Positions 5,259 to 36,420 of a stretch of DNA of 38,200 bases are shown here, piece by piece. This stretch comes from Escherichia phage sortregn. Location of the stretch: the sequence record MN850588.1, one strand, 5' to 3'. Numbering within the stretch: position 1 is the stretch's first letter; every line of letters starts with the position of its first letter. Made by a program: the position numbers and the translations under genes. Under the pieces are notes generated by a model, which saw only the letters and a list, made by a program, of their open reading frames with translations, was not told the DNA's origin and did no database searches.

Positions 5259-5274
5259 CCGAGAGGACCCAGAG

Positions 5275-5856
5275 ATGATTATTTATGCACCAGTAAGCGC
5301 CTTACGCGCTCACCAACTGACCAAAGGCCAGCAGGACGTCCGCTATTACCTGAACGCGATCCACTTCATCGGCAACCGGATCCGCACGTCTAACGGTCAT
5401 GTTTGCATGGAAAGCACCCATAAGCTCGTCAACGCGCCGGAGGAGGGGATCATCCTCTCAATCTCCACGCCACCGACTGGGCGGATCTTCTCCGCCGTGA
5501 TCGACACGGACGCCGGGATCGTGTACTGGCTGGACATTCCGGCAGATAAGCCGAAGGACCTCGAAGAAGTGGACCACAAAAAGGCCCGCGTCGCTGTGGG
5601 GACCGTGGACATTGTGGAGGCCAATTATCCGAACGTGGACGCACTCCTGAACAAGGCCCGCGAGAACTCGAAGGCCGTCCACGAGATCGGCGTGGCGACG
5701 CCTTACCTCGGAATGATCGAGAAGCTGGCGAAGAAGTTCGGGATCAAGATGCCTTTTGCGAAACTGAACTTTAACGGCGCAGCGGAGCCGATCCGCGTGA
5801 ACCTGACCACGCCGGACGGCGAGGCCACCCTGATCATTATGCCCGCGAGAGTGTAA
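5275..5856 (+). CDS. truncated DnaN (beta sliding clamp) homologue
   Basis: 193 aa. GQQDVRYYLNAIHF..RTSNGHVCM resembles the E. coli DnaN domain II start (..HQDVRYYLNGMLF..ATDGHRLAV..). ANYPNVDALL resembles GRFPDYRRVLP, and C-terminal ATLIIMPARV resembles AAYVVMPMRL. No domain I equivalent. GAGAGGA RBS. Confidence 0.6.
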   Translation: MIIYAPVSALRAHQLTKGQQDVRYYLNAIHFIGNRIRTSNGHVCMESTHKLVNAPEEGIILSISTPPTGRIFSAVIDTDAGIVYWLDIPADKPKDLEEVDHKKARVAVGTVDIVEANYPNVDALLNKARENSKAVHEIGVATPYLGMIEKLAKKFGIKMPFAKLNFNGAAEPIRVNLTTPDGEATLIIMPARV

Positions 5857-6854: not shown

Positions 6855-6872
6855 ATAGCACTTTTTGCTAAA
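6855..6872 (+). repeat. conserved element ATAGCACTTTTTGCTAAA (copy 2)
   Basis: 17/18 identical to 4543-4560. AGCACTTT recurs at 6872-6879 and CAATTATC at 6880-6887. Confidence 0.6.
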
Positions 6873-6927
6873 GCACTTTCAATTATCCTTTGTTATTATT
6901 CTTTCACACCAACACGAGGACGACGAA

Positions 6928-11766: not shown

Positions 11767-12420
11767 TTAGCAATTCGTGCTATTCGGATAAAGATACTCG
11801 CTCAACCGGGCCACCAGCGGCTCGTCTGGACCGAACTCAAACAGCCCGCCGTCGTTCTTGATCGAGTGGTGGATCTCCGCCAGTAACGTCTCCGCCCGCT
11901 GGAGCCTGGACGCCGCCGCGTTATCATGCCCGATCAGCTTCGTGATCTCCTCCTCCAGATCAGCGCCGAGCGCCGACGTCGCCCAGTGTTCGGCATACTC
12001 GCGATCCTTCAACAACCGGATCAGGGCCAACACGTCCGACTCGATACCGACAGTCGGGCCAGGCTGGAGCCGTGGCTGGATCTCGTCGAGCGTCTGCTGG
12101 GTAGCGTTCAACGTCCGGCGGATCTTGTCCTGTTCGGCCTTGCTCAGGTCCAGGATCAGCGGCGAAGCCGGGAGGCCATTTAACCAGGCGATCAGGTCGT
12201 CGTAAGGCATGACGGAATAAGCCTTCTCCGACGCGTACCCGGTGATCCGCCAGTCAGTGGTCGAACTGTACGCCTCGGAAATATCATCCTCCCGCAATTC
12301 GCGATAGACGATCTCAGCGCGACCGTTGTCGATCTTGCTCAGGCTCTCGATCAGCGTCTCCGGGATGTGGATCACTTCTTCGCCATTCTTAACGGCGGTT
12401 ACTGCGACATATCTGATCAT
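11767..12420 (-). CDS. hypothetical protein
   Basis: ORF 11767-12447; ATG 12420 preferred (AGGAAAGAGAG RBS, ATGA overlap with the upstream stop). 217 aa. Confidence 0.65.
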   Translation of the reverse strand: MIRYVAVTAVKNGEEVIHIPETLIESLSKIDNGRAEIVYRELREDDISEAYSSTTDWRITGYASEKAYSVMPYDDLIAWLNGLPASPLILDLSKAEQDKIRRTLNATQQTLDEIQPRLQPGPTVGIESDVLALIRLLKDREYAEHWATSALGADLEEEITKLIGHDNAAASRLQRAETLLAEIHHSIKNDGGLFEFGPDEPLVARLSEYLYPNSTNC

Positions 12421-12851
12421 CTCTCTTTCCTCATGGCTTGTTTGCATTGTAAAGCGGCGAGGGCCATCTCCGGGCCAATCTCGACGCCTGGGGGGAACCC
12501 TGTTTCCGTGGTCGCCAGCTTCGAACGATCCACCTTAAGGTCCCGTAATTGTCCGGCCCGTTCCATTTGTCCGGCGTGTCGGCAGAGATCCAGCAGCTTC
12601 TTACGATCGACGCCGGGGCAGTCCCAGAACGCCGCGAATATTTGCTCCGATGGTCGCAGGGCGCAAAAAGCATTGCGCGTTTCAACCGTCGGCAGATAAG
12701 GATCCATTCTCCCCTGTTCTATCGCCTCAATGATCGAGGGATCGGTGGAGCGGATCTTCTCCAGAATCTCCAGGCGGCGCTCCATTGCCGTCTTGCGTTT
12801 AACCGTGGCCCGAAGTGGGGCGGCAGGTTTTGAATCATCAAACAGTGACAT
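12417..12851 (-). CDS. hypothetical protein, first gene of the leftward operon
   Basis: ORF 12417-12977; ATG 12851 preferred (GGAGGG RBS). The upstream ORF part overlaps promoter-like AT-rich DNA. 144 aa. Confidence 0.65.
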   Translation of the reverse strand: MSLFDDSKPAAPLRATVKRKTAMERRLEILEKIRSTDPSIIEAIEQGRMDPYLPTVETRNAFCALRPSEQIFAAFWDCPGVDRKKLLDLCRHAGQMERAGQLRDLKVDRSKLATTETGFPPGVEIGPEMALAALQCKQAMRKER

Positions 12852-12876
12852 ATTGCCCTCCGTTGTGTGGAAATCA

Positions 12877-12904
12877 ATATTACATAACGTTACCATGATG
12901 TAAA
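12877..12904 (-). promoter_or_regulatory. sigma70-like promoter candidate for the leftward operon
   Basis: On the minus strand: TTTACA (12904-12899), 16-nt spacer, TAATAT (12882-12877). The spacer contains GGTAAC (complement of 12889-12894). Confidence 0.5.
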
Positions 12905-12975
12905 GCCCAACCGTGATAATAATTGACTTTACAGTGGTAACAAGGGCGGGTAACATTGCGACCAGTAACGCAACC
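12889..12975. repeat. GGTAAC/GTTACC hexamer cluster (candidate operators or iterons)
   Basis: GTTACC 12889-12894, GGTAAC 12936-12941 and 12949-12954, aGTAAC 12964-12969. GTAACGCAACC (12965-12975) resembles GTTACCGCAACC at 14713-14724. Confidence 0.55.
12916..12943 (-). promoter_or_regulatory. second leftward promoter candidate
   Basis: On the minus strand: TTGTTA (12943-12938), 16-nt spacer, TATTAT (12921-12916). The -35 overlaps GGTAAC 12936-12941. Confidence 0.4.
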
Positions 12976-12991
12976 ATGAGGTGATTAAACA

Positions 12992-14656: not shown

Positions 14657-14670
14657 CCGGGGCGTGTGTT

Positions 14671-14811
14671 GGTAACGAGTAACACCCCCCCTTATAGGGG
14701 GGGATGTAACGTGTTACCGCAACCCACAAGGCCGAAAACATAGTTTTTTATGTGTACTGTTACCGACAAGCGACCGTAATCAAATCAATCATTTATGTGT
14801 GATTCGGTAAC
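14671..14811. repeat. GGTAAC/GTTACC hexamer cluster downstream of the RepA-like gene
   Basis: GGTAAC 14671-14676, aGTAAC 14678-14683, tGTAAC 14705-14710, GTTACC 14713-14718 and 14759-14764, GGTAAC 14806-14811. Confidence 0.55.
14685..14703. other. C7-TTATA-G7 perfect hairpin/palindrome
   Basis: CCCCCCC (14685-14691) TTATA GGGGGGG (14697-14703), bracketed by GTAAC motifs. No U-run. Confidence 0.6.
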
Positions 14812-14824
14812 GGGGAAAGTAGCG

Positions 14825-14872
14825 AATCGGTCGCGGGGAAATCGGGGGGTAAAAATCGGGGGTGACCCCCGA
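14825..14872. repeat. AATCGG(G)n direct repeats ending in a near-palindrome
   Basis: AATCGG 14825-14830, AATCGGGGGG 14840-14849, AATCGGGGG 14854-14862. TCGGGGGTGACCCCCGA 14856-14872 is palindromic apart from the centre. Confidence 0.55.
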
Positions 14873-14911
14873 CAAAATCCCCGCCAAATAATCATTGATA
14901 AGTGATGCGAA

Positions 14912-16258: not shown

Positions 16259-16554
16259 TGGCGATGGACAAGGACCGCAGGGTGGGCCGCACGAAGGCGG
16301 AAGCGCAACTCCTGAAACTCAAGCTGTACAAGGGGCCGGAGTGCAAGGTCCACGGCGGGAACTTCACCCGGTACACGTCAAACGGCGCTTGTGTGCTGTG
16401 CCGTAAGCTGGAGGCCGACACGACGAAGGGCAAGAGCCGGGGCTATATCGCCAAGAAGCGCGACACGCTGGCGTTTAATCACCCGGTTTCACCCTGGCCC
16501 ATAACCGCCGAGAATATGCACCTGTGCCCGGATCTCTCGTTCAAGCGAACTTGA
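16258..16554 (+). CDS. hypothetical Cys/His Zn-binding-like protein
   Basis: 98 aa; TGATG overlap with the upstream stop. ECKVHGGNFTRYTSNGACVLC pattern. Confidence 0.6.
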   Translation: MAMDKDRRVGRTKAEAQLLKLKLYKGPECKVHGGNFTRYTSNGACVLCRKLEADTTKGKSRGYIAKKRDTLAFNHPVSPWPITAENMHLCPDLSFKRT

Positions 16555-16576
16555 TCACGCTTCCGTAACCGCCGAT

Positions 16577-16626
16577 AATCCTCCGCGTAACCCTGTGACA
16601 CTCAGGCGATAAACGGAGGATTTTTT
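16577..16626 (+). promoter_or_regulatory. long-range hairpin pairing an anti-SD with the terS Shine-Dalgarno
   Basis: AATCCTCCG (16577-16585) can pair with CGGAGGATT (16614-16622). The latter holds the GGAGGA SD 9 nt upstream of the terS ATG. The loop is 28 nt and T6 follows. Confidence 0.4.
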
Positions 16627-16630
16627 CATC

Positions 16631-17185
16631 ATGGCAAACGAACAGAACCTTAAGAAGGGGAACCGCTTCTCCAAAGAGAACCAGCCGGAGCGACGCGGCA
16701 GGGCGAAGCAGAACCGGACGTTACTCCTCGAAGCACTCCGCAAGGTTCGGATCAAGGAGGCCACCGGGCGCAAGGTCGAGGACATCGATCCAAACACTGG
16801 CGAGGTGAAGGTGAACAGCGAAACGGGCGAGCCGATCATGGTGGACGAGTTCGTGGAGGTCCCGCTCACGGAGGACATGTTCATCCAGCGAGCGATCCAG
16901 ATGGCCCTCGTAGACGGTTCCATGATGCGCGACATCATGAGCCGATTAATCCCCTACACCAAGCCGACCAGCCCGACCTATTGCTTTGAACTGACCGGAT
17001 CCACCCCGTCCGAGCGTATCACCGAGATCGAGGACCTGGTGGCAGCGGGAGAGCTTCCGTTCGACGCGGCGGAGTCTATGGTGAAGATGATCCGCCACGG
17101 CGCGGAAGTGTTCGAAATGTCCGAAATGGTCAAACGACTGGACGCACTGGAGGCCCGACTGAATGGCGAAGCCAAAGACGAATAA
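16631..17185 (+). CDS. terS: putative terminase small subunit
   Basis: 184 aa upstream of terL, separated from it by the 144-aa HExxH gene. Basic N-terminus KKGNRFSKENQPERRGR typical of small-terminase-like DNA-binding N-termini, and coiled-coil C-terminus. Largely a positional call. Confidence 0.6.
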   Translation: MANEQNLKKGNRFSKENQPERRGRAKQNRTLLLEALRKVRIKEATGRKVEDIDPNTGEVKVNSETGEPIMVDEFVEVPLTEDMFIQRAIQMALVDGSMMRDIMSRLIPYTKPTSPTYCFELTGSTPSERITEIEDLVAAGELPFDAAESMVKMIRHGAEVFEMSEMVKRLDALEARLNGEAKDE

Positions 17186-17597
17186 ACTCCCGCCGGACAC
17201 TTACGGCAGACTGGAGGCGCTGGGCCTGAAATGGTTCACCGCCTCCCCTTACCCTTATTTCATCGTGTGCTTTGACCCGCAGGACGAGGAGATGGTGGCG
17301 AAGCTGGGCGAATGCTTCCCGGACTGGAACCGCGAGAAGCCGATCCAGCAAGGCGTCGCCATTGAGTACCACGCCGCCGACGTTAAGCTGGTGTTCGTAG
17401 GCGTCCGCCGGGGCCAATACTGGCGGACGACCATCGTCCACGAGATCGTCCACGTTAAGAACTACATCGGCGACACGCTGGGGATCGAGTGGGACGTGAA
17501 CAACGACGAGCCGGAGGCTTACTTCGTGGGCTGGCTGTTTAACATGATGGAGCAAACCTTCCAGGATCTGGGCTATGGCAAAAAATCGAAAGGATAA
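17163..17597 (+). CDS. HExxH motif protein (putative zinc metallopeptidase)
   Basis: 144 aa. IVHEIVHV followed 19 residues after the second His by EPEAY. Overlaps terS and terL by 23 nt each, in a third frame. Confidence 0.6.
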   Translation: MAKPKTNKLPPDTYGRLEALGLKWFTASPYPYFIVCFDPQDEEMVAKLGECFPDWNREKPIQQGVAIEYHAADVKLVFVGVRRGQYWRTTIVHEIVHVKNYIGDTLGIEWDVNNDEPEAYFVGWLFNMMEQTFQDLGYGKKSKG

Positions 17598-19197
17598 CCT
17601 CGCACGACTGGCCCGACTGGAGGGCCGGGCGTCTTACGTGGCCCGCGATGGTGGCCTGGTGTATGGCGTTTATGAGCCGGACGGGACCAGCGCCAAGCAC
17701 TGCTACAACATGAAGAAGGTTAACGGCGAATGGGTGTACACCTCCGAGCCGCACGACATCACGATCGCGGAGTGTCTGACCCCGATCCTCCTCCGTCCGA
17801 AGCGCTTTATTATCCTGGTCGGCGGGCGTGGCTCCGGGAAGTCGCTCACCGTCGGCGGGATCATCGACGCAGACGCCCACGACGAGGCGGCGAGCGCGAT
17901 GTGTCTCCGCGAATACCAGGCATCGATCAAGGATTCAGTCCACCCGCTCCTCGTCAACCGGATCGAGGAGTACGGTCTGGACGGCTTCGAGATCCTGGAG
18001 AAGGAGATCCGCCACACCAACGGCGCGATCATCCGTTTTAAGGGGATGGCGAGGGACCCAGCGGGCGTAAAATCCGCGTTCGGCTTCCGTCGCTTCTGGG
18101 GCGAGGAGGCGCAGACCTTTTCCGCCGAGTCTCTCCGCCAGTTAACGCCAACGATGCGCGAAACGGGCGGTATTATGCTGTTCACGGCGAACCCCGGCTC
18201 CAGTGAGGACGCATTCAGTCAGAGATTCCTGATCCCATTCTGGGAGGATCTCCAGCGGGACGGCATCTACGAGGACGATCTCCACCTGATAATCCGCGTC
18301 AACTGGTCGGATAACCCCTGGTTCCCCCCAGAGCTTCGATCGGAGATGGAGTTCGACCGCCAGACGCTTTCAAAGGCGCTATTCGATCACGTATGGGAAG
18401 GCCATTTTAATGACAGTGTGCCGGATGCCATTATCCCGGCGGAATGGTTCGACGCGGCGATCGACGCCCACAAGAAACTCGGATTCAAGCCGACCGGGAT
18501 CAGGATCGGCGCACTCGACCCGGCGGACGTCGGGGCGGATAACAAGGCTTACGGCGAGCGTTACGGCTCCGTGGTCACGCATATGGAGGAATGGTTCGAA
18601 GGTGACGCGAACGACTCCGTAGACAAGGCGATCAACACGGCGAAGGACCACGGGATCGAGGCGTTCGTGTGGGACCGCGCCGGACTGGGCGCTGGCTTGC
18701 GCCGCCAGGTCACGGAGGCTTACGCCGGGACGAAGGTCCTCGTAGACGGTTACAACGCCGGGGACGGCGTGAAGCACCCTGACAACCCTGTGGAGCTTGA
18801 TCACTGGCTGAACAACAAGGCCAGCGGGAACAATATCCAGAAGAACGCCGACGCGTTCGCGAACCGTGGCTCCCAGGACATCTACCTGTTACGGAAGCGC
18901 TTCGAAAGGACTTACGAGGCCGTGGTGAAGGGCGTATATCACAACCCGGACGAACTGATCGCGCTGGACAGCGAGGGGATCGGGGAGCATATGACCAAAC
19001 TCAGGGCGGAAGTGTGCCGTATTCCGCGCATTTACAACACCAACGGGAAATTTGCTAGGATGCCTAAGCCGCAGATGCGGACCAAACTCAAAATGAAGTC
19101 GCCGGGGATGGCTGACGTGCTTTGCATGTTGATGCAGCCGCCGGAGACGGTGAAAGACGAAGATTATTCCGGCTATAATGTGCCGAGCAACCGCTAA
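17575..19197 (+). CDS. terL: terminase large subunit
   Basis: 540 aa. Walker A-like ILVGGRGSGKS, ATPase N-half and nuclease C-half. Position upstream of portal. Confidence 0.9.
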   Translation: MAKNRKDNLARLARLEGRASYVARDGGLVYGVYEPDGTSAKHCYNMKKVNGEWVYTSEPHDITIAECLTPILLRPKRFIILVGGRGSGKSLTVGGIIDADAHDEAASAMCLREYQASIKDSVHPLLVNRIEEYGLDGFEILEKEIRHTNGAIIRFKGMARDPAGVKSAFGFRRFWGEEAQTFSAESLRQLTPTMRETGGIMLFTANPGSSEDAFSQRFLIPFWEDLQRDGIYEDDLHLIIRVNWSDNPWFPPELRSEMEFDRQTLSKALFDHVWEGHFNDSVPDAIIPAEWFDAAIDAHKKLGFKPTGIRIGALDPADVGADNKAYGERYGSVVTHMEEWFEGDANDSVDKAINTAKDHGIEAFVWDRAGLGAGLRRQVTEAYAGTKVLVDGYNAGDGVKHPDNPVELDHWLNNKASGNNIQKNADAFANRGSQDIYLLRKRFERTYEAVVKGVYHNPDELIALDSEGIGEHMTKLRAEVCRIPRIYNTNGKFARMPKPQMRTKLKMKSPGMADVLCMLMQPPETVKDEDYSGYNVPSNR

Positions 19198-19214
19198 ACC
19201 CCACGGAGAACATC

Positions 19215-21449
19215 ATGGCACGAGTTAAAAAATCGGTGCAGAACTGGCAGGAATGCGCCCGGAAGAAATTAAGCGCCGCGATCGGGGCGGAGGACACCAG
19301 CCGCAAGAAGATGATCGAAACGGCGCGATTTGTCCGCATTCCTGGCGCTCAGTGGGAAGGCTCCACGAACTCCGGCTTTGCGATGGATGATGAACGTTTC
19401 CAGAAATACCCGCGATTTGAGCTAAACAAGGTCGGGCGCGAGGTGGATCGCATCATTTCAGACTACCGCCTGAACCGCGTAAACGTCACGTTCCGCCCGA
19501 AGGACACCCAGGCCTCCGAAGAACTGGCGGACAAGCTGAACGGCAAGTTTCGCGCAGACTTCAACGAGTCGAACGGCTCCGAAGCCGTGGACAACACCTA
19601 CGAGGACGGCGTGACGGGCGGAATGGGCGCTTTCCGCATGGACACCGAACTGGAGGACGAGTTCGACCCGGACAACGAACAGCGTCACATTGTTTTTTAC
19701 CCGATCTATGATCCGGCCTCGTGCCTGTTTATCGATCAGGACTCCAAGATGTACGATCGCAGTGATGCTATGTGGATGGCGGAGCTATTCAGCATGACCC
19801 CGGACAAGTACGAGGAGCGCTATCCCGACGCCCTCGCCCCGGAGGACCTGATGGCGATCGATACCGGGAAACAATTCGACTGGGCCACGAAGGACGCGAT
19901 CTATCTGGCGCGTTACTACGAGGTGAAGATCGAGGACACCACCGTGATCTCCTACAAGAACCCGTTAACCGGGGAGGTGGAGGTCTACGACGAGGACGAG
20001 ATCGAGCAGATCGAGGACGAACTGGAGGCCGGAGGCTGGGAACGCCAGAAGGATCGCAAGGTCAAGCGCCGCAAGGTCTATTGCGGACTTATGACTGGTG
20101 GCGAATGGCTGGAGGAGCCGAAGCTGATCCCGTTCGAGTGGATCCCGATCTTCGTGTTCAACGCCCGCCGCTCGTTCATCGACAACATGGAACGCGTAAG
20201 CGGTCACGCGACCCAGGCCCTCGACGCGCAACGTCTGGAAAACCTGATCGTGTCCATGATGGCGGACCAGGCCGCGCAGTCTGGCGGCGATAACATCCCG
20301 ATCATGGACATTGATATGATTCCCGGAGCGCTGGCTGACGCCTGGGGGGAACGTAACACGAAGCGCCCGGCATACTTGCCCGCTAAATCGCTCCGTAACG
20401 CCGCTGGTGAGGTTGTGCAGCAAGCCGGGCCACTGGGTTACACGCCATCGACGCCGCTCTCTCCGGCGCTGGCAGCGGTCCTACAGTACACCGGGAGCAC
20501 TATCCAGCAGATCGTCGGCTCGTCCCAGGTGGAGGCGTTACCGTCGAACCTGGCGACCGAAACCGTGGAGGCCATTTTCGCCCGTATGGACGGACAGGGC
20601 GCTCTCTACATGGACAACCTGGGGAAAACGCTCCGCCACTGTGGGCGCGTGTACCTCAGCGCGGCCCGCAAGGTCTACGGCTCGGAGAATTACGTCCGCG
20701 TGAAGAACGAGGACGGGACCGACGATCTCGTGTTAATGACCGGGAAAGTGATCGATCGTGACACGGACGAGGCGATCGCGATTAACGACCTCAAGCGCGG
20801 GAAATATGAGGTCGAGGCCGACGTGGGCGAGTCCTCCCAGACGAAGCGCGTCGCAACCGTTCGCAGCCTGACGAATCTCCTCCAGTCCATGCAGCCTGGC
20901 GACCCGAACGCCGCCGTAGTGATGGGCCTGATCATCATGAACATGGACGGCGAAGGCTTGCAGGACTTCAAGGAATACAGCCGCCGCCAGCTTCTCCTGA
21001 ATGGCATCGTGAAGCCGCAGACGGACGAGGAGAAAGCGATGGTAGCCGAGGCCCAGCAAGCCGCCCAGCAGCAGCCGGACGCGCAGATGGTAGCCGCTCA
21101 GGGCGTAGCGCAGCAGGGACAGGCCGCAGTGATGGAGCAGGAGAACAAGCGTTTAGAACTGACGCTCAAGGCGCAGAGCACCGCGTCCGACGGTCAACTG
21201 AAAAACGCGCAGACGGTCAAGACGATGGCAGAGGCGGCGGCAATCCCGCAGGATCAGCTATTGAGCGCGATCGCCGTTCTCCAGAAGTACGTCTCCCAGC
21301 AGAACAGCGACGCCCACAAACAGGCGGATCTGTTCCTCAAGGCTCAGGGACAGGGCCACACCCAGCGCGAGGACCAGATGGCCCGCGAGATGGCAGAGCG
21401 CCAGGCATCGCAGAGCGCCGATCGTCAACTGGGATTAGCTGGCCTGTAA
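19215..21449 (+). CDS. portal protein, P22 gp1-like
   Basis: 744 aa, collinear with P22 gp1 as recalled: ARYYEVKIEDTTVISYKNPLTGEVEVY vs [28 protein letters not shown], and KVKRRKVY vs QIKRRRVY. C-terminal Q/A-rich barrel AEAQQAAQQQPDAQMVAAQGVAQQGQAA. Confidence 0.95.
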   Translation: MARVKKSVQNWQECARKKLSAAIGAEDTSRKKMIETARFVRIPGAQWEGSTNSGFAMDDERFQKYPRFELNKVGREVDRIISDYRLNRVNVTFRPKDTQASEELADKLNGKFRADFNESNGSEAVDNTYEDGVTGGMGAFRMDTELEDEFDPDNEQRHIVFYPIYDPASCLFIDQDSKMYDRSDAMWMAELFSMTPDKYEERYPDALAPEDLMAIDTGKQFDWATKDAIYLARYYEVKIEDTTVISYKNPLTGEVEVYDEDEIEQIEDELEAGGWERQKDRKVKRRKVYCGLMTGGEWLEEPKLIPFEWIPIFVFNARRSFIDNMERVSGHATQALDAQRLENLIVSMMADQAAQSGGDNIPIMDIDMIPGALADAWGERNTKRPAYLPAKSLRNAAGEVVQQAGPLGYTPSTPLSPALAAVLQYTGSTIQQIVGSSQVEALPSNLATETVEAIFARMDGQGALYMDNLGKTLRHCGRVYLSAARKVYGSENYVRVKNEDGTDDLVLMTGKVIDRDTDEAIAINDLKRGKYEVEADVGESSQTKRVATVRSLTNLLQSMQPGDPNAAVVMGLIIMNMDGEGLQDFKEYSRRQLLLNGIVKPQTDEEKAMVAEAQQAAQQQPDAQMVAAQGVAQQGQAAVMEQENKRLELTLKAQSTASDGQLKNAQTVKTMAEAAAIPQDQLLSAIAVLQKYVSQQNSDAHKQADLFLKAQGQGHTQREDQMAREMAERQASQSADRQLGLAGL

Positions 21450-21473
21450 CTGGTCGGACCGCACGAAAAGCTA

Positions 21474-21502
21474 AAGACAAGCCCGCTTCGGCGGGCTATT
21501 CT
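21474..21502 (+). promoter_or_regulatory. promoter candidate overlapping the portal terminator
   Basis: AAGACA (21474-21479), 17-nt spacer, TATTCT (21497-21502). Same architecture as 25006-25034. Confidence 0.4.
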
Positions 21503-21505
21503 TTG
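21481..21505 (+). terminator. rho-independent terminator after the portal gene
   Basis: GCCCGC-TTCG-GCGGGC followed by TATTCTTTG. Confidence 0.7.
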
Positions 21506-21508
21506 CCT

Positions 21509-21519
21509 CGACACATCAC
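21509..21519 (+). repeat. conserved leader CGACACATCAC (copy 1)
   Basis: Identical 11-mer at 25041-25051. Both copies lie exactly 6 nt after the -10-like hexamer. Confidence 0.6.
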
Positions 21520-21543
21520 TAAACCATTACAAAGGAGTTTTGA

Positions 21544-21765
21544 ATGGCCCGATCACTGATAGCAGTCAAAGACGCCGCCGGGGAAAAGTACCTCCTCCCG
21601 GTCCGTAACATCGTGAGCGTGACGGAGTTCCCGGACAACGAGCGCCGCGTGGAGGTCAAGGTCCGCGAGCCGATCAATGGCCCAGACGGGCGGATCTGTG
21701 GGTACGAGTTAAACCTGTATTACTCGCCAATGTCGATCGCACAATTCGAAGGGGCTTACGCGTGA
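21544..21765 (+). CDS. hypothetical protein (insert gene 1)
   Basis: 73 aa; AAGGAG RBS; first gene after the portal terminator. Confidence 0.6.
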   Translation: MARSLIAVKDAAGEKYLLPVRNIVSVTEFPDNERRVEVKVREPINGPDGRICGYELNLYYSPMSIAQFEGAYA

Positions 21766-21932
21766 AACGCTACAAATGCACCGTAGGCGACAAGCGCGGG
21801 GCGTTCGGCGACTGTATGGAGCAGGACAAGGACGGGGACTGGATGCGCGTCTCCGACCATAATCGACACATTCAGGCACTGGAGCGCCAGATCGCGGCGC
21901 TAAAGGCCAAAACCAGAGAGACGAAACAATGA
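21762..21932 (+). CDS. hypothetical protein (insert gene 2, 56 aa)
   Basis: Below the ORF-track cutoff. GTGA overlap with the upstream stop and ATGA overlap with the downstream start. MKRYKCTVGDKRGAFGDCMEQDKDGDWMRVSDHNRHIQALERQIAALKAKTRETKQ. Confidence 0.5.
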   Translation: MKRYKCTVGDKRGAFGDCMEQDKDGDWMRVSDHNRHIQALERQIAALKAKTRETKQ

Positions 21933-22297
21933 AAACGACCTACAACCTCGACCAGATGGCCCTCTTTTCTGCGATCGCCGCAGCGGTAGGAAAACAGGCG
22001 CCAGGGCTTCCGGCGGATAACCGCGCTAACGTGGTGATCGAGGCCGCAAACATGATCGTAGCGGCCTATGCGCTGACCGATGCCGAATACATGGCGAAGA
22101 AGGCAGAAGCGCCGATCGCCGTTGACCTCCAGCCGACGGCGGAACAGGTGGAGGCCGGGATCGCCTCGCTGTGGGACACCATCCCCGGCGCGATGGATCA
22201 GCTATGCCAGGACGTGGCAGAGGAGGAGCAGGGCGATCTATTCTCCGACGCTGTTACTTTCGTGTGGCAAGCCATGATCGGGAAGCGTCCACAATGA
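21929..22297 (+). CDS. hypothetical protein (insert gene 3)
   Basis: 122 aa, Ala-rich and acidic, translationally coupled on both sides. Confidence 0.6.
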   Translation: MKTTYNLDQMALFSAIAAAVGKQAPGLPADNRANVVIEAANMIVAAYALTDAEYMAKKAEAPIAVDLQPTAEQVEAGIASLWDTIPGAMDQLCQDVAEEEQGDLFSDAVTFVWQAMIGKRPQ

Positions 22298-22563
22298 GCG
22301 TAATCCATCACTACCTCGCCTTTCCGGGCGGGGGAGTGTCCGCCCTCCGCAAGCTGGGCCAGACGCTCGAAGAACGCCACGACCTCGACGGCATACTGGA
22401 GGGGCCGGAGGAGGGGGAGCGCTGGCGCATCGTAGCCAGTGAGATGATCCACGCCGCAGAAGGGCCAGACGTCGCGCTCTACTACGTGATCCCCGCTTCG
22501 GTTCCACCGCACCACGAGGCGCTCTATCTCTCGCAAGCCCTCGTAAAAGCCGCCACGAAATAA
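22294..22563 (+). CDS. hypothetical protein (insert gene 4)
   Basis: ORF 22171-22563; ATG 22294 preferred (ATGA overlap with the upstream stop). 89 aa. Confidence 0.6.
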   Translation: MSVIHHYLAFPGGGVSALRKLGQTLEERHDLDGILEGPEEGERWRIVASEMIHAAEGPDVALYYVIPASVPPHHEALYLSQALVKAATK

Positions 22564-22647
22564 CCCGCCACCCTGGGGGGATCGTTAATCGCGATCTCCC
22601 CTATTTGCATTTTCCCGCCGCCCTCGCTTAAACTTACTCCCGCCACC
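22564..22647 (+). repeat. CCCGCCRCC triple repeat in the portal-insert/scaffold gap
   Basis: CCCGCCACC 22564-22572, CCCGCCGCC 22614-22622, CCCGCCACC 22639-22647. Confidence 0.5.
22576..22612 (+). terminator. imperfect hairpin plus T-rich tail (possible terminator of the 4-gene insert)
   Basis: GGGGGATCG-TTAATCG-CGATC(T)CCCC, then TATTTGCATTTT. Confidence 0.4.
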
Positions 22648-22690
22648 GATGGGCGAATACATCGCGTATGCAACAAAACGAGGATCTACG

Positions 22691-23689
22691 ATGAAATTCC
22701 GTGAAATGTTTTTGAAATATTATGCACCGTACACCGAGAACGACGGCGGCGCGGCGGCATATGAAGCTATGCAGAACGGCAACTCTCAGGAAGCCACGGA
22801 CGACACCCCGGACACTGACCCGAACGAGCAGGACCACGACAACGACAACGACGTGGACACCGATCTGGACGAGCAGGATCTGGACGAGAACGGCAAGCCG
22901 AAGGCGAAGGAAGGCGGCGAGAACGCGGAAACCGAGGACGAGGAGGAGGAGTTCCTGTTCGACGGTCAACCAGTTACCGCAGCGCCTACGGACGAAGATG
23001 ATCAGGAAGGCGACAGCGACCTGGTGAAACATCTCCGCGCCCAACTCCGCGAGCAGAAAAAACAATTCAAGACCTCCACCCAGGCGGCGCAGGAGCGCAA
23101 AGAGATTCCCGCAGATATGCCCCGCAAGCCAGAGATGGGCGACGAGGGGATCGACTGGGACCCGGAGAAGTACGCCGAAGCGCTGGACAAGTGGACCGAG
23201 GACAAGGCCGCTTATCAGCAGCGCGAGCAGGAGATGGCAGCGAAGCGCGAAGCGTTCGGGAAGAAATTCTCCGAAGGCCAGCAGCGCTACCAGACCGAAC
23301 GCGCTAAGGCGATCAAGAAGTATGCGGGCTTTGAGAAGGCCGAAGCCGCGATCGCAGAACTGCCGGAGCCGTTACAGGCGGGCCTGATGATCAACAGTAA
23401 GAACCCGGCGGCGCTGGTCATGGTACTGGGACGTAACGCTGATTTGCGGAAGCAAGTCGAGGATGCCTATAATAGCGACCATATCGCGCTGGGCTACCTA
23501 ATCCGCGATATTGAGGCCCGCGCAGGTTCCAAGCCGAAGGCGAAACAGAATCTCAATTCTACGCCAGAAGTTAAGGGCCAGAACGGAGTCGCAAACGTCG
23601 GACAACTGGAAGCACTTCGCAAACGAGCGGAAGCGACCGGGGATTATACGGAATACTTCGCAGCCAAGAACAAACGGGCTGAAAAGTAA
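22691..23689 (+). CDS. putative scaffolding protein
   Basis: ORF 22649-23689; ATG 22691 preferred (GAGGA RBS). Highly acidic N-half, charged helical C-half. Position between portal and coat as for P22 gp8. Confidence 0.65.
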   Translation: MKFREMFLKYYAPYTENDGGAAAYEAMQNGNSQEATDDTPDTDPNEQDHDNDNDVDTDLDEQDLDENGKPKAKEGGENAETEDEEEEFLFDGQPVTAAPTDEDDQEGDSDLVKHLRAQLREQKKQFKTSTQAAQERKEIPADMPRKPEMGDEGIDWDPEKYAEALDKWTEDKAAYQQREQEMAAKREAFGKKFSEGQQRYQTERAKAIKKYAGFEKAEAAIAELPEPLQAGLMINSKNPAALVMVLGRNADLRKQVEDAYNSDHIALGYLIRDIEARAGSKPKAKQNLNSTPEVKGQNGVANVGQLEALRKRAEATGDYTEYFAAKNKRAEK

Positions 23690-23719
23690 AACTAACACTC
23701 TATCGGTGGAGATGGATAA

Positions 23720-24976
23720 ATGGCTAACCAGTTAGCGAAGGATCTCGAAATTGCATTCGAGAATTATGTGGCAGGCTTTGACGCGTCTTGCGTAGTATCG
23801 CAGAACGCAGCCAAATTCCGCCCGGATGATACCGCGATGCAACGCGCCGGGGACGTGATCTATCGTCCGCAGCACTACCACGCGGATATTTTGGAAGGTC
23901 TGGATCTGACTGGCAAGGCCGGGACCGATATCGTCCAGCGCCTGGTCCCGTCGGCGTTCAAAGAACCTCAGAACGTGCTCTATAAGCTGGACGCTCGCGA
24001 AATGCGCGACCCAGAGCACAAGAAAGAAATGGGCCGAGCAGCGGGCCAACGTATCGCAGCGAAGATCGACTCCGATCTGATCAACGCCGCAGCACGTTAC
24101 GCGACGCACGTCGTCCCGGTAGGCACTAACACGACCGGAACCCTGGGCCGCGACCTGTGGAACGCAGCGGCGGGCGTGGATGCCGAAATGACCGCTATCG
24201 GGATCCCGGTAGGCGTGAACCGTCGTTCCTTCTGGAACCCCTTCTCCTACAAAGACCTTGCGGGCGAACTGGGCGGACGCCAGTACGTCGCGGGCGTGAC
24301 CCTCTCCGCATACGAGAAGGCGCAGATCCCGGATGTGGCGAGCTTCGACTCCTACAAGACGGACATCTCTCCGCGTCTGGGCGCTGGCCCGACTGGAGCG
24401 ATCACCCTGACCGCAGCCCCGGCGCACAAAGTCCAGTCTAAGAACGCGAACGACATCCCGGTGGATAACCGCGAAGGCGTGATCGATGTTTCTGCTGGTC
24501 ACGGTCTGAAGGCTGGCGACGCGTTCACTATCGCGGGCGTTCACTCCGTCCACATGATCAGCAAGGACACGACTGATCAGCTTCAAGTGTTCCGTGTGCT
24601 GGCAGTGTCCGACAACAACGTAACGATCACCCCGCAGATCCTCCCGCCGGATAACGCGGATCTGCCGTCTCGTCCTTACTCCAACGTGGACGCGAACGCA
24701 GCCTCCGGCGCTGAACTGACCGTTATCAACAAGAACGCGGCGAACGCTAACTTGCTGTGGGCGGACGGCTCCGTGGAGCTTATGCTGGGTAATCTGGCGT
24801 TCCCGACTGGTCAAGGCCCGCAGGTTATGCGCGCTACCGCGAAGAACGGCGCGACGCTGATCATGTCCTACAGCTTCGACCACATCGCGGGCGTCACCAC
24901 TTGCCGCTTTACCACGCTTTACGGCGTTTCCGTCCTCGTGCCGGAATATGTCGGCCTGGTACTGCCGAACCAGTAA
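23720..24976 (+). CDS. major capsid (coat) protein, P22 gp5-like
   Basis: 418 aa. AGDAFTIAGVHSVHMISKDTTDQLQVFRVLAVSDNNVTITPQI vs P22 gp5 [45 protein letters not shown] (as recalled). Followed by a strong terminator. Confidence 0.9.
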   Translation: MANQLAKDLEIAFENYVAGFDASCVVSQNAAKFRPDDTAMQRAGDVIYRPQHYHADILEGLDLTGKAGTDIVQRLVPSAFKEPQNVLYKLDAREMRDPEHKKEMGRAAGQRIAAKIDSDLINAAARYATHVVPVGTNTTGTLGRDLWNAAAGVDAEMTAIGIPVGVNRRSFWNPFSYKDLAGELGGRQYVAGVTLSAYEKAQIPDVASFDSYKTDISPRLGAGPTGAITLTAAPAHKVQSKNANDIPVDNREGVIDVSAGHGLKAGDAFTIAGVHSVHMISKDTTDQLQVFRVLAVSDNNVTITPQILPPDNADLPSRPYSNVDANAASGAELTVINKNAANANLLWADGSVELMLGNLAFPTGQGPQVMRATAKNGATLIMSYSFDHIAGVTTCRFTTLYGVSVLVPEYVGLVLPNQ

Positions 24977-24995
24977 GACGCGACGCGCAGCACAA

Positions 24996-25022
24996 AGGGG
25001 AGCCATTGGCTCCTCTTTTTTT
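24996..25022 (+). terminator. rho-independent terminator after the coat gene
   Basis: AGGGGAGCC-ATT-GGCTCCTCT 9-bp stem followed by a T7 run. Confidence 0.8.
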
Positions 25023-25034
25023 ATGGCTTATACT
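25006..25034 (+). promoter_or_regulatory. sigma70-like promoter candidate overlapping the coat terminator
   Basis: TTGGCT (25006-25011), 17-nt spacer, TATACT (25029-25034). Confidence 0.55.
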
Positions 25035-25040
25035 GTTCCC

Positions 25041-25051
25041 CGACACATCAC
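25041..25051 (+). repeat. conserved leader CGACACATCAC (copy 2)
   Basis: Identical to 21509-21519, 6 nt after the -10-like hexamer. Confidence 0.6.
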
Positions 25052-25070
25052 CCTATCAAGAGGATCTACC

Positions 25071-25589
25071 ATGTCACGCAATAAGACCGCGATCGCCGTA
25101 GCTATGACCATGATTTACACCCGCCCCGCTATCATCGCCGGGGAAAATATCAAAGGTCTGGAAGTCCTGACCCGCGACCACACGGACGGCCCCTACGCCC
25201 GCGCCTCGTTCCCGGATGAAGAAGCCGCCGAGCGTCTGGAGTCTGGCTTCTGGGTGGATCATCCGGTCAAACTCTCCACGCTGGACAAGGCGATCGCCGA
25301 AGCCGCTCAGAAGGAAGCGGAGCAGGACAAAAAGGACGCCGACAACCAGAAAGCCGAGCAGGTGAAGAAGGAGCAGGACGAGAAGGTGGAAGATAAGGCC
25401 CCAGAATCGACCGCTACGGCCTCCGAGCAGAAAGACGACCCGAAGGCCACCGAAGCGGAAAAAGCCGCAGAGAGCGGCGCAGAGGCTCAGGAATCCACCC
25501 AGGAAGCGAAGGCCGACGAATCCAAGCCGAAAGACGGCGAGAAGGTAGACGGCGCGAAAGTTCCGACTGATAAGAAGGCGAAGAAATAA
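25071..25589 (+). CDS. hypothetical protein with Lys/Glu/Ala-rich disordered tail
   Basis: ORF 24948-25589; ATG 25071 preferred (AGAGGA RBS, downstream of terminator and promoter). 172 aa: a folded N-terminal ~75 aa, then a polyampholyte tail ending KKAKK. Confidence 0.6.
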   Translation: MSRNKTAIAVAMTMIYTRPAIIAGENIKGLEVLTRDHTDGPYARASFPDEEAAERLESGFWVDHPVKLSTLDKAIAEAAQKEAEQDKKDADNQKAEQVKKEQDEKVEDKAPESTATASEQKDDPKATEAEKAAESGAEAQESTQEAKADESKPKDGEKVDGAKVPTDKKAKK

Positions 25590-25591
25590 TT

Positions 25592-26047
25592 ATGGCGACC
25601 ATGCAGAAGATCCAGATCGTGAACCTGGCGTTACGCCGGGGCGGGATCGCGTCGTCTGCTGTTCTCATGCAACCAGATCCCCAGCAGTTAGCCGACGCGC
25701 TGGGCGATCTGGAGTCCCTTATGGCTTCGGTGATCAAGGACGGCGTGGATCTGCCGTACAACTTCACCACCAACCCGGACGGCATTCCCGACGGGAACGA
25801 GGACTCCGGTCTGGAACTTTGGACGCTGGAGGCGCTGGGCCTCAAGCTGGCACAAAGGATCCTGATCGATATGCAGCGCGACCTAACGCCGCAACAAAAC
25901 GCGGTCTTGCGCGAACAGTGGGACGTGGTGAAAGTGGCATTCTACAAAGTGCCATCACTCAAACAGCGTAACGATATGCCAACCGGGGAAGGAAATAATC
26001 CTTTCTGGGCTGACGATCGTTTCTACTATGACGGGACGGCGAAATGA
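25592..26047 (+). CDS. tail accessory factor, P22 gp4-like
   Basis: 151 aa. IVNLALRRGGIASSA..DALGDLESLMAS vs gp4 LVRAALRKLGVASDA..DAVDDLEAMMAE; MPTGEGN vs MPTGSGN. Position after coat. Confidence 0.8.
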   Translation: MATMQKIQIVNLALRRGGIASSAVLMQPDPQQLADALGDLESLMASVIKDGVDLPYNFTTNPDGIPDGNEDSGLELWTLEALGLKLAQRILIDMQRDLTPQQNAVLREQWDVVKVAFYKVPSLKQRNDMPTGEGNNPFWADDRFYYDGTAK

Positions 26048-27480
26048 GGAACCCAGAGCGCGGGCAGGAGATTAACATCCCGTTACTGTACGGTGACGGG
26101 CGCAGTAATAAGACGCTGGACTGGACGACGCGACTCCCGGAGAACATGCTGGCGGTCGCCCGACAGGTCAAAGGCGGCAACGGCTACATGCGGATCATGC
26201 CGGGGATCGATAAGGTCGCCGACGTGGACGGGATCAGCCGTGGCTCGGAATGGAACACGGTCAAAATGGGACCTTCCCGCGTAATGGGTGGCAAGCTGTA
26301 CCTCTTAGGCTCGCCGCTGGCGGACGTGTCCGGCGTGGACCGTACTCCTATGGCGCATAGCCGCGACAGGATCGGCATTGTGACCGATAACCGCCTGTTA
26401 ATGGTCGGCTATGACGGGACTGTGACGAACTTTTCCAACTGGACGGGGGAGGACGCTCCGATCTACTCGTGGGGCGACATTAACGACGTTTGCCACCTCC
26501 GCCAGCGCTTCATCTTCTCCACGAAGGGGACGGACACCTTTTGGATCTCCGACCTGGAGGACGAGACGAAGCCGGACAAGATCGCCCCGGCGTATCGCGC
26601 TGAATCCATGCCGGACGGCATCGTGGCGATCCGCTCGTGGCATGACTATGTTGTGTGCTTCGGTAGCGCCTCGATCGAGTTCTTCGGCCTGACCGGGGAC
26701 GACCAGAACGTCTACGCGAACCAGCCCTCCTACACCGTCCAGGCCGGAACGCTGGGACGTGAAACCGTTTGCGCCTATCTGGACACGTTCGCGTTTATTA
26801 CGTCCCAATTCTCCGGGGAGTACACGATCGCCATCATGCAGCCCGGCGCGGCTCCGACGGAGATCGCCAGCGCGGAAGTTAAGAAGATGCTCGCCGGGTA
26901 CACCGTGGAGCAGCTACAGGCGGCGCGACTGGAGTCACTCAGCTATGAAACGCATAAATTGCTTATTGTCCACCTACCGGACAAAACGCTGGTTTACGAT
27001 CACCCCGTTAGCCAGGCCCAGGGCGTCCCGGTCTGGTCATTCCTCAAGACGGGGATCCTCTCGCTTAAGCCGTGGCGGGCGATTGACGTCATGAACGAGG
27101 GCAACCGGATCACCGTCGGCGACAAGACGGGGAAATGGCTCGGAGCGCTGAACAATACCCACTCCGCGCAGTACGGCGAGGACCAGGAGATCGTCCTGTA
27201 CACGCCGATCCTGTGGGCTGAAAATGCGATCCTCGCTGACTTTAGGATCGACGCTTCGACCGGGGGCGGCTCTACCACTTCCCGGATCTGGCTCTCCGCC
27301 ACCGAGGACGGGATCAACTACGGGCAGGAGCGAACGATCGCTTATAACACGCCTTACCGCTGGCTACAGAACGTTATCTTGCCCGTTGTGGGCCGCGTCC
27401 GTTCCGCCATCGGCTTTAAACTTCGCACCGTTGGCGCGACCCCGGCGACTCTCTCGCGGGCGCGTGTCCGTGTGACCTGA
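26044..27480 (+). CDS. tail hub protein, P22 gp10-like
   Basis: 478 aa. FWISDLEDETKPDK..YRAESMPDGIVAIRSWHDYVVCFGSASIEFFGLTG vs gp10 WFITDLEDESHPDR..YRAESQPDGIIGIGTWRDFIVCFGSSTIEYFSLTG. Confidence 0.9.
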   Translation: MRNPERGQEINIPLLYGDGRSNKTLDWTTRLPENMLAVARQVKGGNGYMRIMPGIDKVADVDGISRGSEWNTVKMGPSRVMGGKLYLLGSPLADVSGVDRTPMAHSRDRIGIVTDNRLLMVGYDGTVTNFSNWTGEDAPIYSWGDINDVCHLRQRFIFSTKGTDTFWISDLEDETKPDKIAPAYRAESMPDGIVAIRSWHDYVVCFGSASIEFFGLTGDDQNVYANQPSYTVQAGTLGRETVCAYLDTFAFITSQFSGEYTIAIMQPGAAPTEIASAEVKKMLAGYTVEQLQAARLESLSYETHKLLIVHLPDKTLVYDHPVSQAQGVPVWSFLKTGILSLKPWRAIDVMNEGNRITVGDKTGKWLGALNNTHSAQYGEDQEIVLYTPILWAENAILADFRIDASTGGGSTTSRIWLSATEDGINYGQERTIAYNTPYRWLQNVILPVVGRVRSAIGFKLRTVGATPATLSRARVRVT

Positions 27481-33496: not shown

Positions 33497-33514
33497 GGGG
33501 GCCAGGTGGCCCCC
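33497..33514 (+). terminator. GC hairpin between the ejection protein and tailspike genes (weak terminator/attenuator)
   Basis: GGGGGCC-AGGT-GGCCCCC followed only by TTCTC. Confidence 0.35.
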
Positions 33515-35979: not shown

Positions 35980-36177
35980 TTAGCGCGGCAGGTCGAGCCG
36001 AGCCTGTAAAACGCCCGCGTAAGCCTTCATCACGTCCAACTGTACGACGAGGAGACGCTGTTCCGTAGGGTTAACTTTCGCGAACCCCGGCGAGTTAAAA
36101 ATGAATTGCGACAGTGCCGTGATCTTGCCTTCGAGATCGGCCTTTTCGATGCGGACGCGTTCTAAAAAGTCAGTCAT
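35980..36177 (-). CDS. small helical protein (crAss001_48-like family as recalled), function unknown
   Basis: ORF 35980-36195; ATG 36177 preferred (8-nt overlap with the upstream HTH gene). FLERVRIEKADLEGKITALSQFI..F..L...EQRLLVVQLDVMKAYAGVLQARL pattern. Confidence 0.65.
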   Translation of the reverse strand: MTDFLERVRIEKADLEGKITALSQFIFNSPGFAKVNPTEQRLLVVQLDVMKAYAGVLQARLDLPR

Positions 36178-36388
36178 GGTTAACTCCTGTTTCAATCAGA
36201 TCCGCGATCGAGACGTCGAGCGCCTTCGCGATGCGGCATAGGTTAGTAACAGATGGCAATTCATGCCCGTTTTCGTAGCGGCTCAACTGATGCGGGATCA
36301 TGCCGATTCGCTCCGCTAATTCTTTTTGCTGGATGCCTTTCGCTTCGCGGACTTGCTTCACGAGGCAAACGGCTTTTAATTCCGCCAT
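36170..36388 (-). CDS. Cro/CI-type (XRE) HTH transcriptional regulator
   Basis: ORF 36170-36403; ATG 36388 preferred (AAGGAG 6 nt upstream). KGIQQKELAERIGMIPHQLSRYENGHELPSVTNLCRIAKALDVSIADL is a classic XRE HTH. Confidence 0.8.
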   Translation of the reverse strand: MAELKAVCLVKQVREAKGIQQKELAERIGMIPHQLSRYENGHELPSVTNLCRIAKALDVSIADLIETGVNHD

Positions 36389-36420
36389 GTTCGGCTCCTT
36401 CATTGGTTAACGTCTCCGTG

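Follow-up and report, generated by a model that had tools for sequence, protein, structure and literature searches.

Candidate terminator-promoter junctions in the structural gene cluster of Escherichia phage sortregn

Introduction

In phage T7, promoter phi10 lies ahead of the major capsid gene 10 and terminator T-phi lies behind it; T7-type promoters are 23-bp elements, conserved from -17 to +6, that serve a single-subunit phage polymerase. The late operon of temperate P22-like phages relies on Q antitermination (PMC2629481). Lambdoid morons, such as HK97 gene 15 and the "ant moron" of P22-like phages, are cassettes between genes that are adjacent in relatives, with a promoter-like site before, a terminator-like hairpin after and contents that are shuffled among relatives; we use the term as defined in PMC3594210 and PMC2629481. 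Here we describe three intergenic units, U1, U2 and U3, in the structural gene cluster of Escherichia phage sortregn (sequence record MN850588.1; the whole 38,200-bp stretch, with 59.3% GC, is called the window). These units are probably compact junctions at which a single stretch of 50-60 bp serves as both intrinsic terminator and host sigma-70-type promoter.

The phage is a Murrayvirus podovirus with a P22-like head module and appears to be virulent. As in the late operons of P22, Sf6, CUS-3 and epsilon34, homologous portal, scaffold, coat, gp4-like and gp10-like genes follow one another in the same order, a hairpin and T-run follow the coat gene, the next gene includes a homologue of a small post-coat gene, and the scaffold leader contains a stem-loop. 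The P22-like operons, which have a single promoter and Q (gp23), lack a promoter block after the coat hairpin and between portal and scaffold, whereas the window has three internal promoter-like sites and no recognizable Q, judged from the annotation of Salmonella phage Lumpael and from nine small open reading frames (ORFs). The arrangement also recalls phi10, gene 10 and T-phi, in that a promoter-like site lies upstream and a terminator-like hairpin downstream of the genes with the highest-copy products (here scaffold and coat, from U3 to the U2 hairpin), and the genes beyond would depend on read-through or a further promoter. Unlike the phage polymerase promoters of T7, the sites described here are of host sigma-70 type, overlap the terminators and are known from sequence alone. 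As in T7-type promoters, the conserved block spans the start and the first transcribed bases, which would give transcripts common 5' ends, but the upstream elements are sigma-70-like and the downstream part is shared at two of the three sites, at the second of them in part of the genus.

The four-gene cassette between portal and scaffold resembles lambdoid morons in its placement between genes adjacent in relatives, the promoter-like and terminator-like sequences on either side of it and its shuffled contents. It differs from them in that an apparently virulent phage has no expression from a repressed prophage, its base composition is not deviant, and its last gene is almost always present. 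In addition, temperate P22-like phages lack a moron between portal and scaffold (PMC2629481).

Results

We assigned genes by mapping those of Lumpael (NC_048113, genus Murrayvirus) onto the window. Over positions 19000-26200, the window is 99.3% identical to Lumpael and 84-85% identical to IME_EC2, sortsyn, ST231 and KMB41. Sortsnevirus, Kc237, Skarpretter, C130_2, Kc166B and Kc259 are farther relatives, and temperate Sf6/CUS-3-like P22-type phages are farther still. Our comparison set consisted of 13 GenBank genomes, three IMG/VR or metagenome contigs and eight Logan contigs, the last sampling eight of the 24 protein clusters of Murrayvirus-like contigs listed. Positions 12992-35925 form a single co-directional block, and within its structural cluster just three intergenic gaps exceed 30 nt: 21450-21543, which holds U1; 22564-22690, which holds U3; and 24977-25070, which holds U2 (Table 1).

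Table 1. Structural cluster genes (placed by Lumpael mapping) and signals of the three units, in window positions
Feature	Position	Strand	Remarks
Terminase gene		+	First in the structural cluster order, before portal
Portal gene	19215-21449	+	
U1 -35-like hexamer AAGACA	21474-21479	+	12 relatives have AAGACA or TTTACA here
U1 hairpin AGCCCGC-UUCG-GCGGGCU	21480-21497	+	Terminator-like; fold z-score -4.1
U1 -10-like hexamer TATTCT	21497-21502	+	Block GGGCTAT(T/A)(C/G/A)T nearly invariant across genera
11-mer CGACACATCAC, copy 1	21509-21519	+	Predicted transcript start, G at 21510
Four-gene cassette (73, 56, 122 and 89 aa)	21544-22563	+	Gene families shuffled among relatives
U3 hairpin closing the cassette	22575-22601	+	Terminator-like; 11 pairs; fold z-score -2.45
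U3 promoter-like site (TTGCAT, 18-nt spacer, TAAACT, TACTCC, CGCCAC)	22605-22646	+	Hexamers and 17-18 nt spacing kept in 8 genomes
Scaffold-leader stem-loop CGAUG/CAUCG	22647-22664	+	22647-22651 pairs with 22660-22664; conserved in relatives
Scaffold gene	22691-23689	+	
Coat gene	23720-24976	+	
U2 hairpin followed by T7	24994-25018	+	11 pairs; strong intrinsic-terminator-like
U2 -35-like hexamer TTGGCT	25006-25011	+	In hairpin loop and 3' arm
U2 -10-like hexamer TATACT	25029-25034	+	9/12 promoter match
11-mer CGACACATCAC, copy 2	25041-25051	+	Predicted transcript start, G at 25042
172-aa gene	25071-25589	+	Conserved N-terminal domain and charged tail; first gene of the downstream head-completion/tail operon
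gp4-, gp10- and gp26-like genes, ejection proteins, tailspike		+	After the 172-aa gene

U1 and U2 share a layout. At U1, AAGACA is followed by a 17-nt spacer, TATTCT, TTGCCT and CGACACATCAC; at U2, TTGGCT is followed by a 17-nt spacer, TATACT, GTTCCC and CGACACATCAC. The hexamers, hairpins, 17-nt spacers and 11-mers that the original prediction listed are all in place, with the 11-mer exactly 6 nt past each -10-like hexamer and a GC-rich hairpin adjoining each site. Hairpin and promoter-like site occupy much of the same DNA. At U1, the hairpin (7 pairs and a UUCG loop) fills the promoter spacer, its closing T doubles as position 1 of the -10 hexamer, and this hexamer overlaps the U-rich tail. 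At U2, the T-run makes up most of the spacer. We also found a third unit of the same build, absent from that list, at 22575-22646 before the scaffold gene. In this unit, U3, the 11 hairpin pairs are followed by UAUUUGCAUUUU, and the -35 hexamer lies within the U-rich tail. U2 and U3 additionally have the ribosome-binding stretch GAGGATCTAC in common.

The 11-mer is the longest word common to any two intergenic regions of the window, and by itself it is weak evidence. When all intergenic regions were shuffled, some pair had a word of at least 11 nt in common in 54 of 300 shuffles (18%); for the U1/U2 pair alone, this occurred in 10 of 5000. The match across the whole unit is not chance. From the -10 hexamer through the 11-mer, U1 and U2 are identical without gaps at 19 of 23 positions, a score that none of 20,000 dinucleotide-preserving shuffles reached (highest, 18). 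Moreover, the pattern TAWWCT-N6-CGMCAC has exact matches at three places only, which are the three long gaps of the structural cluster. With one mismatch allowed, the count rose to 5 against an expected 0.8, a number not reached in any of 100 shuffles. A candidate fourth unit at 17183-17200, with one mismatch to the loose pattern, was rejected, as it lies inside overlapping coding sequence.

The upstream elements have the features of sigma-70 promoters. All three -10-like hexamers (TATTCT, TATACT and, at U3, TAAACT) have A at position 2 and T at position 6, and the -35-like hexamers AAGACA, TTGGCT and TTGCAT, each matching the consensus at 4 of 6 positions, lie 17, 17 and 18 nt from them. U2 alone of the three passes a scan that requires 9 of 12 promoter matches. 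In relatives, the -10 hexamer takes the forms TATTCT, TATTAT, TATAGT, TATACT, TACACT or TAATAT, and Murrayvirus, Sortsnevirus, Kc237, Skarpretter, C130_2, Kc166B and the Logan relatives all keep the 16-18 nt spacing at each of the three sites. What changes is the sequence of the spacers, hairpin arms and loops included, while hexamers and spacing stay. At U1, every genome has AAGACA or TTTACA, a 17-18 nt spacer and TATTCT, TATTAT or TATAGT. At U3, the -35 hexamer is TTGCAT, TTGCAA, TTGCCA, TTTACA or TTGCCC, the -10 hexamer TAAACT, TACACT or TAATAT, and the spacer sequence is wholly different between clades with its length held at 17-18 nt. Sortsnevirus also has A-tracts upstream of the -35 (AAAAAACCAC-TTTACA), as in UP elements. 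With hexamers and spacing conserved across four or five genera as the spacer and hairpin sequences change, U1 and U2 look like real promoters, as had been proposed.

E. coli RNA polymerase prefers to start at a purine that comes after a pyrimidine. For most tabulated combinations of genome and site, the seven bases past the -10 hexamer form a pyrimidine-rich discriminator that leads to a pyrimidine-purine step at position 7 or 8. In the window, C and G stand at positions 7 and 8, which agrees with the original placement of the start at or near the 11-mer. We therefore read the 11-mer as the predicted start site and initial transcribed sequence.

A separate repeat also accompanies promoter-like layouts. 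The 13-mer ATAGCACTTTTTG adjoins the U1 -35 hexamer in Skarpretter, C130_2, L342, L343 and L346, and occurs in the window at 4543-4555 and 6855-6867, each copy followed by a U1-like promoter layout. That at 6855-6915 reads ...CTAAAGCAC, 17 nt, (TGT)TATTAT, TCTTTCA, CACCAACACGAGGA, and the site at 4543-4600 likewise has a CACCAAC start, so that these promoter-like sites, too, begin C/A-rich (CACCAAC at ~4590 and ~6905). The 13-mer may be an upstream promoter element or activator site. An ORF start annotated at 6865 is doubtful because it falls inside the promoter-like layout.

The three hairpins rank with the best terminator-like sites found on the + strand between 15000 and 34000, the region scanned. 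Each is a GC-rich stem-loop with a U-run, with 11 pairs and T7 at U2, 11 pairs at U3 and 7 pairs at U1. The U1 stem covaries among relatives: its arms are GCCCGC/GCGGGC, GCCCGG/CCGGGC or GCCCCA/TGGGGC around UUCG, CAAGU, UACGU, CGGA or UCCG loops, pairing is kept in 70 of 70 cells (100%, in 10 genomes), compensatory changes occur at two pairs, and 0 of 500 shuffles reached the covariation score. At U2, a hairpin and T-run follow the coat gene in all relatives, temperate ones included, with differing stems (GGGGAGCC, GGGGCC, GGGGC) in the same place. Rfam 15 covariance models gave no match at E <= 1 on either strand of 21000-25600.

The U1 hairpin variants are distributed at odds with overall relatedness. 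GCCCGC-UUCG-GCGGGC is found in the window, Lumpael and the distant C130_2, and GCCCGG-CAAGU-CCGGGC in closer Murrayviruses and Sortsnevirus, which suggests recombination at the U1 junction.

We compared the start regions of the relatives. At U1, all Murrayvirus-like genomes carry CGACACATCAC, even those of a sister clade (L342, L343 and L346) with a portal gene end that is ~72% identical. Sortsnevirus-like genomes have related sequences there (CACAACATCAC in sortkaff and IME279, GCAACATCAC in L143, CACAACATCAT in L100), and C130_2 has GTACACTTCAC. At U2, CGACACATCAC is identical in the window, Lumpael, L339, L340 and L341, which puts both copies in at least five genomes; their downstream gene is 60-72% identical at the protein level. 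Close relatives differ at U2 by a 1-nt deletion (CGA-ACATCAC in ST231, KMB41, L345 and L020, reading CGAACATCAC in the first three) or by three substitutions (GAAACATCAC, in IME_EC2 and sortsyn). There is no trace of the 11-mer at U2 of Sortsnevirus or Kc237 (CCCGTTAAC...) or of L342, L343 and L346 (GGGCTTGATTATC...). Judged by this distribution, the 11-mer is old at U1 and younger and more variable at U2, where it belongs to part of the genus only. ACATCAC is the sole stretch between the -10 hexamer and the ribosome-binding site that all three Murrayvirus U2 variants have in common, and it is mildly enriched genome-wide (8 copies vs 3.1 expected).

The expectation that the unit would recur in related phages held for the hexamers and their spacing, which extend across four or five genera, and only narrowly for the exact 23-nt unit. 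In IMG/VR, the latter was found in Lumpael, IME_EC2 and one relative, and twice per contig in Lumpael only; two further hits lie in unrelated sequence contexts and are apparently chance. Two scans of IMG/VR with 14-15-base patterns were too unspecific and gained one new relative, L143.

Several roles for the repeat were considered and rejected. In sortkaff, IME279, L143 and L100, AUCA(C/U) in the U1 leader is the 5' arm of a small stem-loop (AUCACG/CGUGAU in some). The two window leaders fold no better than shuffles (z -0.25 and +0.75), with the 11-mer predicted to be unpaired in both, and a 5' stem-loop role was rejected for the window. General co-evolution of U1 and U2 within genomes was rejected because within-genome similarity of the start regions is raised in Murrayvirus only. 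The 11-bp direct repeats are also not insertion scars, as the segment between them holds the essential scaffold and coat genes.

The U2 promoter block behaves as a discrete element. After the T-run, GCTTATACT is present in Murrayvirus, Sortsnevirus, Kc237, L100, L143 and all Logan relatives. A block of ~30 nt is absent from Skarpretter, C130_2, Kc259 and ~75 temperate prophage loci, in which the hairpin is followed directly by a ribosome-binding site. Between the window and L339-L341, identity is 97.9% over the 48 nt that reach from the T-run to the ATG, compared with 73-75% for the 5' intergenic part and 69-80% for the first 270 nt of the next gene.

One relative carries an additional gene at this junction. 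Acb2/Tad1 family proteins are anti-CBASS/anti-Thoeris sponges. L343, a Murrayvirus-like Logan contig (SRR32678519), encodes a 78-aa member of this family at 5172-5408 (Pfam E = 7e-18), between the coat gene and the U2 unit and with its own hairpin upstream. The post-coat junction therefore accepts counter-defence genes.

The original prediction took the two units to mark two insertions of accessory genes. This holds for the four-gene cassette, which is extra DNA between genes adjacent in relatives: in Kc259 and ~75 temperate P22-like prophage loci, portal and scaffold are separated by the scaffold leader only. Among relatives, the cassette combines five recurring small-gene families and singletons in varying ways, and its last gene is present in 12 of 13 genomes, so part of it may be core to this lineage. 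At 56-64%, its GC content is within the range of its neighbours. Sequence signals lie on both sides, the U1 promoter-like site before it and the U3 hairpin after it. Kc259 has one U1-type promoter-like site (TTTACA, 17 nt, TATTAT) joined directly to the conserved scaffold leader, which suggests that the cassette came in downstream of an ancestral promoter of the scaffold gene, either bringing a terminator and a second promoter, U3, or acquiring them.

The claim does not hold for the 172-aa gene, which is ancestral and syntenic, with homologues in this place throughout the related genera. Its N-terminal domain has a homologue in a 62-69-aa post-coat gene of temperate P22-like prophages (hhalign probability 94.5%, E = 7e-8; BLASTP 1e-4). 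Pfam, PHROGs and PDB sequence searches assigned no function to it or to the cassette genes, and a metagenome search with a six-sequence alignment for the 172-aa protein returned two Sortsnevirus-like contigs only. From this gene to the tailspike stop codon, ~10 kb of essential genes for head completion, ejection and the tailspike contain no gap >28 nt, so the U2 promoter is not specific to an accessory gene. Most likely, it feeds this whole operon past the strong coat terminator. Nor are the units in general signs of non-canonical genes, since U3, built in the same way, stands before scaffold and coat, which are canonical genes.

U3 leads into a conserved leader element, CCGATGGG-N5-13-CATCG(C/A)GTA (window 22641-22668), located 25-45 nt upstream of the scaffold start codon. 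All virulent relatives keep it, as do temperate Sf6/CUS-3-like prophages; Kc166B shows one compensatory pair, and no Rfam family matches the element. The actual start codon of the scaffold gene is at 22691; an ORF start at 22649 falls within the leader hairpin. Post-transcriptional autoregulation of the P22 scaffolding protein is treated as known where PMC5529062 cites its references 52 and 53, and the leader element is a candidate RNA target for such autoregulation.

Discussion

From the sequences, their conservation, the covariation of the hairpins and gene synteny, we infer the following scheme for U1, U2 and U3 as nested terminators and promoters. A polymerase arriving from upstream would meet the hairpin and its U-rich tail and be largely released. 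A new polymerase would bind the two hexamers, -35 and -10, lying beside the hairpin or partly within it, and initiate at the G of the CG dinucleotide, 8 nt past the -10 hexamer. Because this start is downstream of the terminator, locally made transcripts would lack it, and it would act on incoming polymerases only. The 11-mer would supply the start site and the first ten transcribed bases, giving a C/A-rich, unstructured 5' end.

Such junctions would split the cluster into separately dosed units: terminase and portal; the accessory cassette; scaffold and coat, which are needed in hundreds of copies; and the 172-aa gene with those after it. The U1 promoter and U3 terminator would bracket the cassette in a moron-like manner, and the U3 promoter and U2 terminator would bracket the two genes whose products are needed in highest copy number. 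The U2 promoter would then restart transcription for the low-copy virion proteins. The Lumpael record has no annotated phage RNA polymerase, sigma factor or Q-type antiterminator, and Pfam/PHROG scans of nine small ORFs, a subset of the ORFs, found no phage RNA polymerase, sigma factor or Q-like protein. Within that coverage, the hallmark of a Q-antiterminated late operon is missing, and internal promoters appear to have replaced Q antitermination in this virulent lineage.

Several observations weigh against this scheme. The hexamers match consensus at 4-5 of 6 positions only, and the promoter scan found 7 sites against 4.8 +/- 2.3 in shuffles; with no excess over shuffles, the promoter case rests on the pattern of conservation. 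The U tail at U1 is imperfect (AUUCUUUG, 5 U in 8), making U1 the weakest terminator candidate of the three. A plain promoter also leaves unexplained why four diverged genomes have kept the 48-nt U2 block almost unchanged and why the ACATCAC core survives in three U2 variants as its flanks change. If the promoters are constitutive sigma-70 promoters, late timing is hard to account for. The literature contains no promoter data or transcript 5' or 3' ends for this phage or its relatives' genera.

The conservation of the start region could instead mean that the 11-mer or its ACATCAC core is a specific site, either an operator over +1 (for example, for the XRE-type regulator encoded at 36170-36403) or a 5' RNA tag, through which cassette and tail-operon transcripts are switched or stabilized together. 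We regard this as unlikely. It would account for the ACATCAC island in three diverged U2 variants that differ on both sides of it, for the 98% conservation of the 48-nt block between flanks that are 70-80% identical, for retention of the U1 11-mer in the sister clade despite the divergence of its portal gene, and for the mild enrichment of ACATCAC. However, the 11-mer lacks dyad symmetry, the scaffold-coat unit has CGCCAC only, and the motif is absent from U2 of Sortsnevirus, Kc237 and the L342/L343/L346 clade despite the same gene order. In Sortsnevirus-like genomes, U1 and U2 are no more similar within a genome than between genomes, and no candidate binding protein was identified. In a related form of the idea, the 48-nt block and its 5'-GACACAUCAC start would go beyond a promoter and act as a common tag, in DNA or RNA, for a phage or host factor that co-regulates the cassette and the tail/ejection operon apart from scaffold and coat. 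This we consider rather improbable; if true, virulent P22-like descendants would have swapped Q antitermination for terminator-nested, factor-tuned promoters.

The original prediction had favoured a regulated promoter or common RNA leader shared by U1 and U2. This is possible, and a dedicated regulator need not be invoked for the match. Copying or common descent of a promoter-core/start module, followed by selection on the start region, is the most likely source of the U1/U2 identity.

Alternatively, there could be a single long late transcript and no internal promoters, with the hairpins serving in it only as partial terminators or as elements for RNA stability or 3' ends. The hexamers would then be incidental A/T-rich sequence beside T-runs and the 11-mer a leftover of shared ancestry. 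The modest consensus matches are compatible with this, and temperate P22-like prophages, Skarpretter, C130_2 and Kc259, which have the post-coat hairpin without the promoter block, indicate that read-through can suffice. The positions of the hexamers argue otherwise: those of the -35 type precede the hairpins or fall within them, outside the T-runs, and their 16-18 nt distance to the -10 is kept across genera. Likewise, the U3 spacer has been fully replaced between clades at a constant 17-18 nt, the U2 promoter block comes and goes as a discrete indel, and the A-tracts before the Sortsnevirus -35 are UP-element-like. We consider a single long transcript improbable.

That the U1/U2 match is chance or a recent, functionally meaningless patch of local gene conversion is very improbable: the frequency of 11-nt words in shuffled intergenic regions, the restriction of the doubled 23-nt unit to Lumpael among IMG/VR contigs and the altered U2 copies of close relatives would fit, but the in-register identity was never reached by shuffling and both copies persist in genomes with diverged downstream proteins.

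Read as nested terminator-promoter junctions, U1, U2 and U3 are of known kinds (sigma-70-type promoter, intrinsic terminator, moron-like cassette); their compact nesting and conserved start block are neat, not surprising, and do not overturn current understanding. They provide a testable transcription-unit map for unstudied virulent podoviruses of Murrayvirus, Sortsnevirus, Skarprettervirus and Hungariovirus. They also suggest that a P22-type late operon could work without Q antitermination by using host-type promoters nested in internal terminators. Two conserved junctions flank variable small genes and, given the Acb2/Tad1-family case, are reasonable slots in which to look for new counter-defence genes. 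In phage engineering, the 50-60 bp modules could act as compact insulators.

Additional features of the window

A further site looks like a terminator-nested promoter. At 16551-16630, promoter-like TTGATC, 17 nt and GATAAT are nested in a hairpin, ATCCTCCG...CGGAGGAT, with T6, and the ribosome-binding site of a 184-aa gene falls in the hairpin's 3' arm. Read-through transcripts would mask this ribosome-binding site; locally initiated ones would not. On the minus strand at ~12882, TTTACA, 16 nt, TAATAT, TGATTTC and CACACAACGGAG lie within the annotated 5' end of the gene at 12417-12977. This promoter-like site with a C/A-rich start suggests that the start of that gene is mis-annotated.

The window lacks ~2.9 kb of Lumpael at 15241/15242. 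The missing stretch runs from the gp05 end across gp06-gp11 and takes in most of gp12, with the beginning of gp12 fused to the gp05 end; this explains the genome sizes of 38.2 kb and 41.1 kb (Lumpael). Nearby, a 255-nt intergenic region (14657-14911) with a long hairpin (CACCCCCCCTTATAGGGGGGG) and recurring motifs (GTTACC/GGTAAC and AATCGGGG) is a possible origin of replication or regulatory region. The position before the tailspike gene is that of the "ant moron" in temperate P22-like phages (PMC2629481). In the window, the 28-nt gap there holds a GC-only hairpin, GGGGGCC-AGGU-GGCCCCC (33497-33514), with no T-run.

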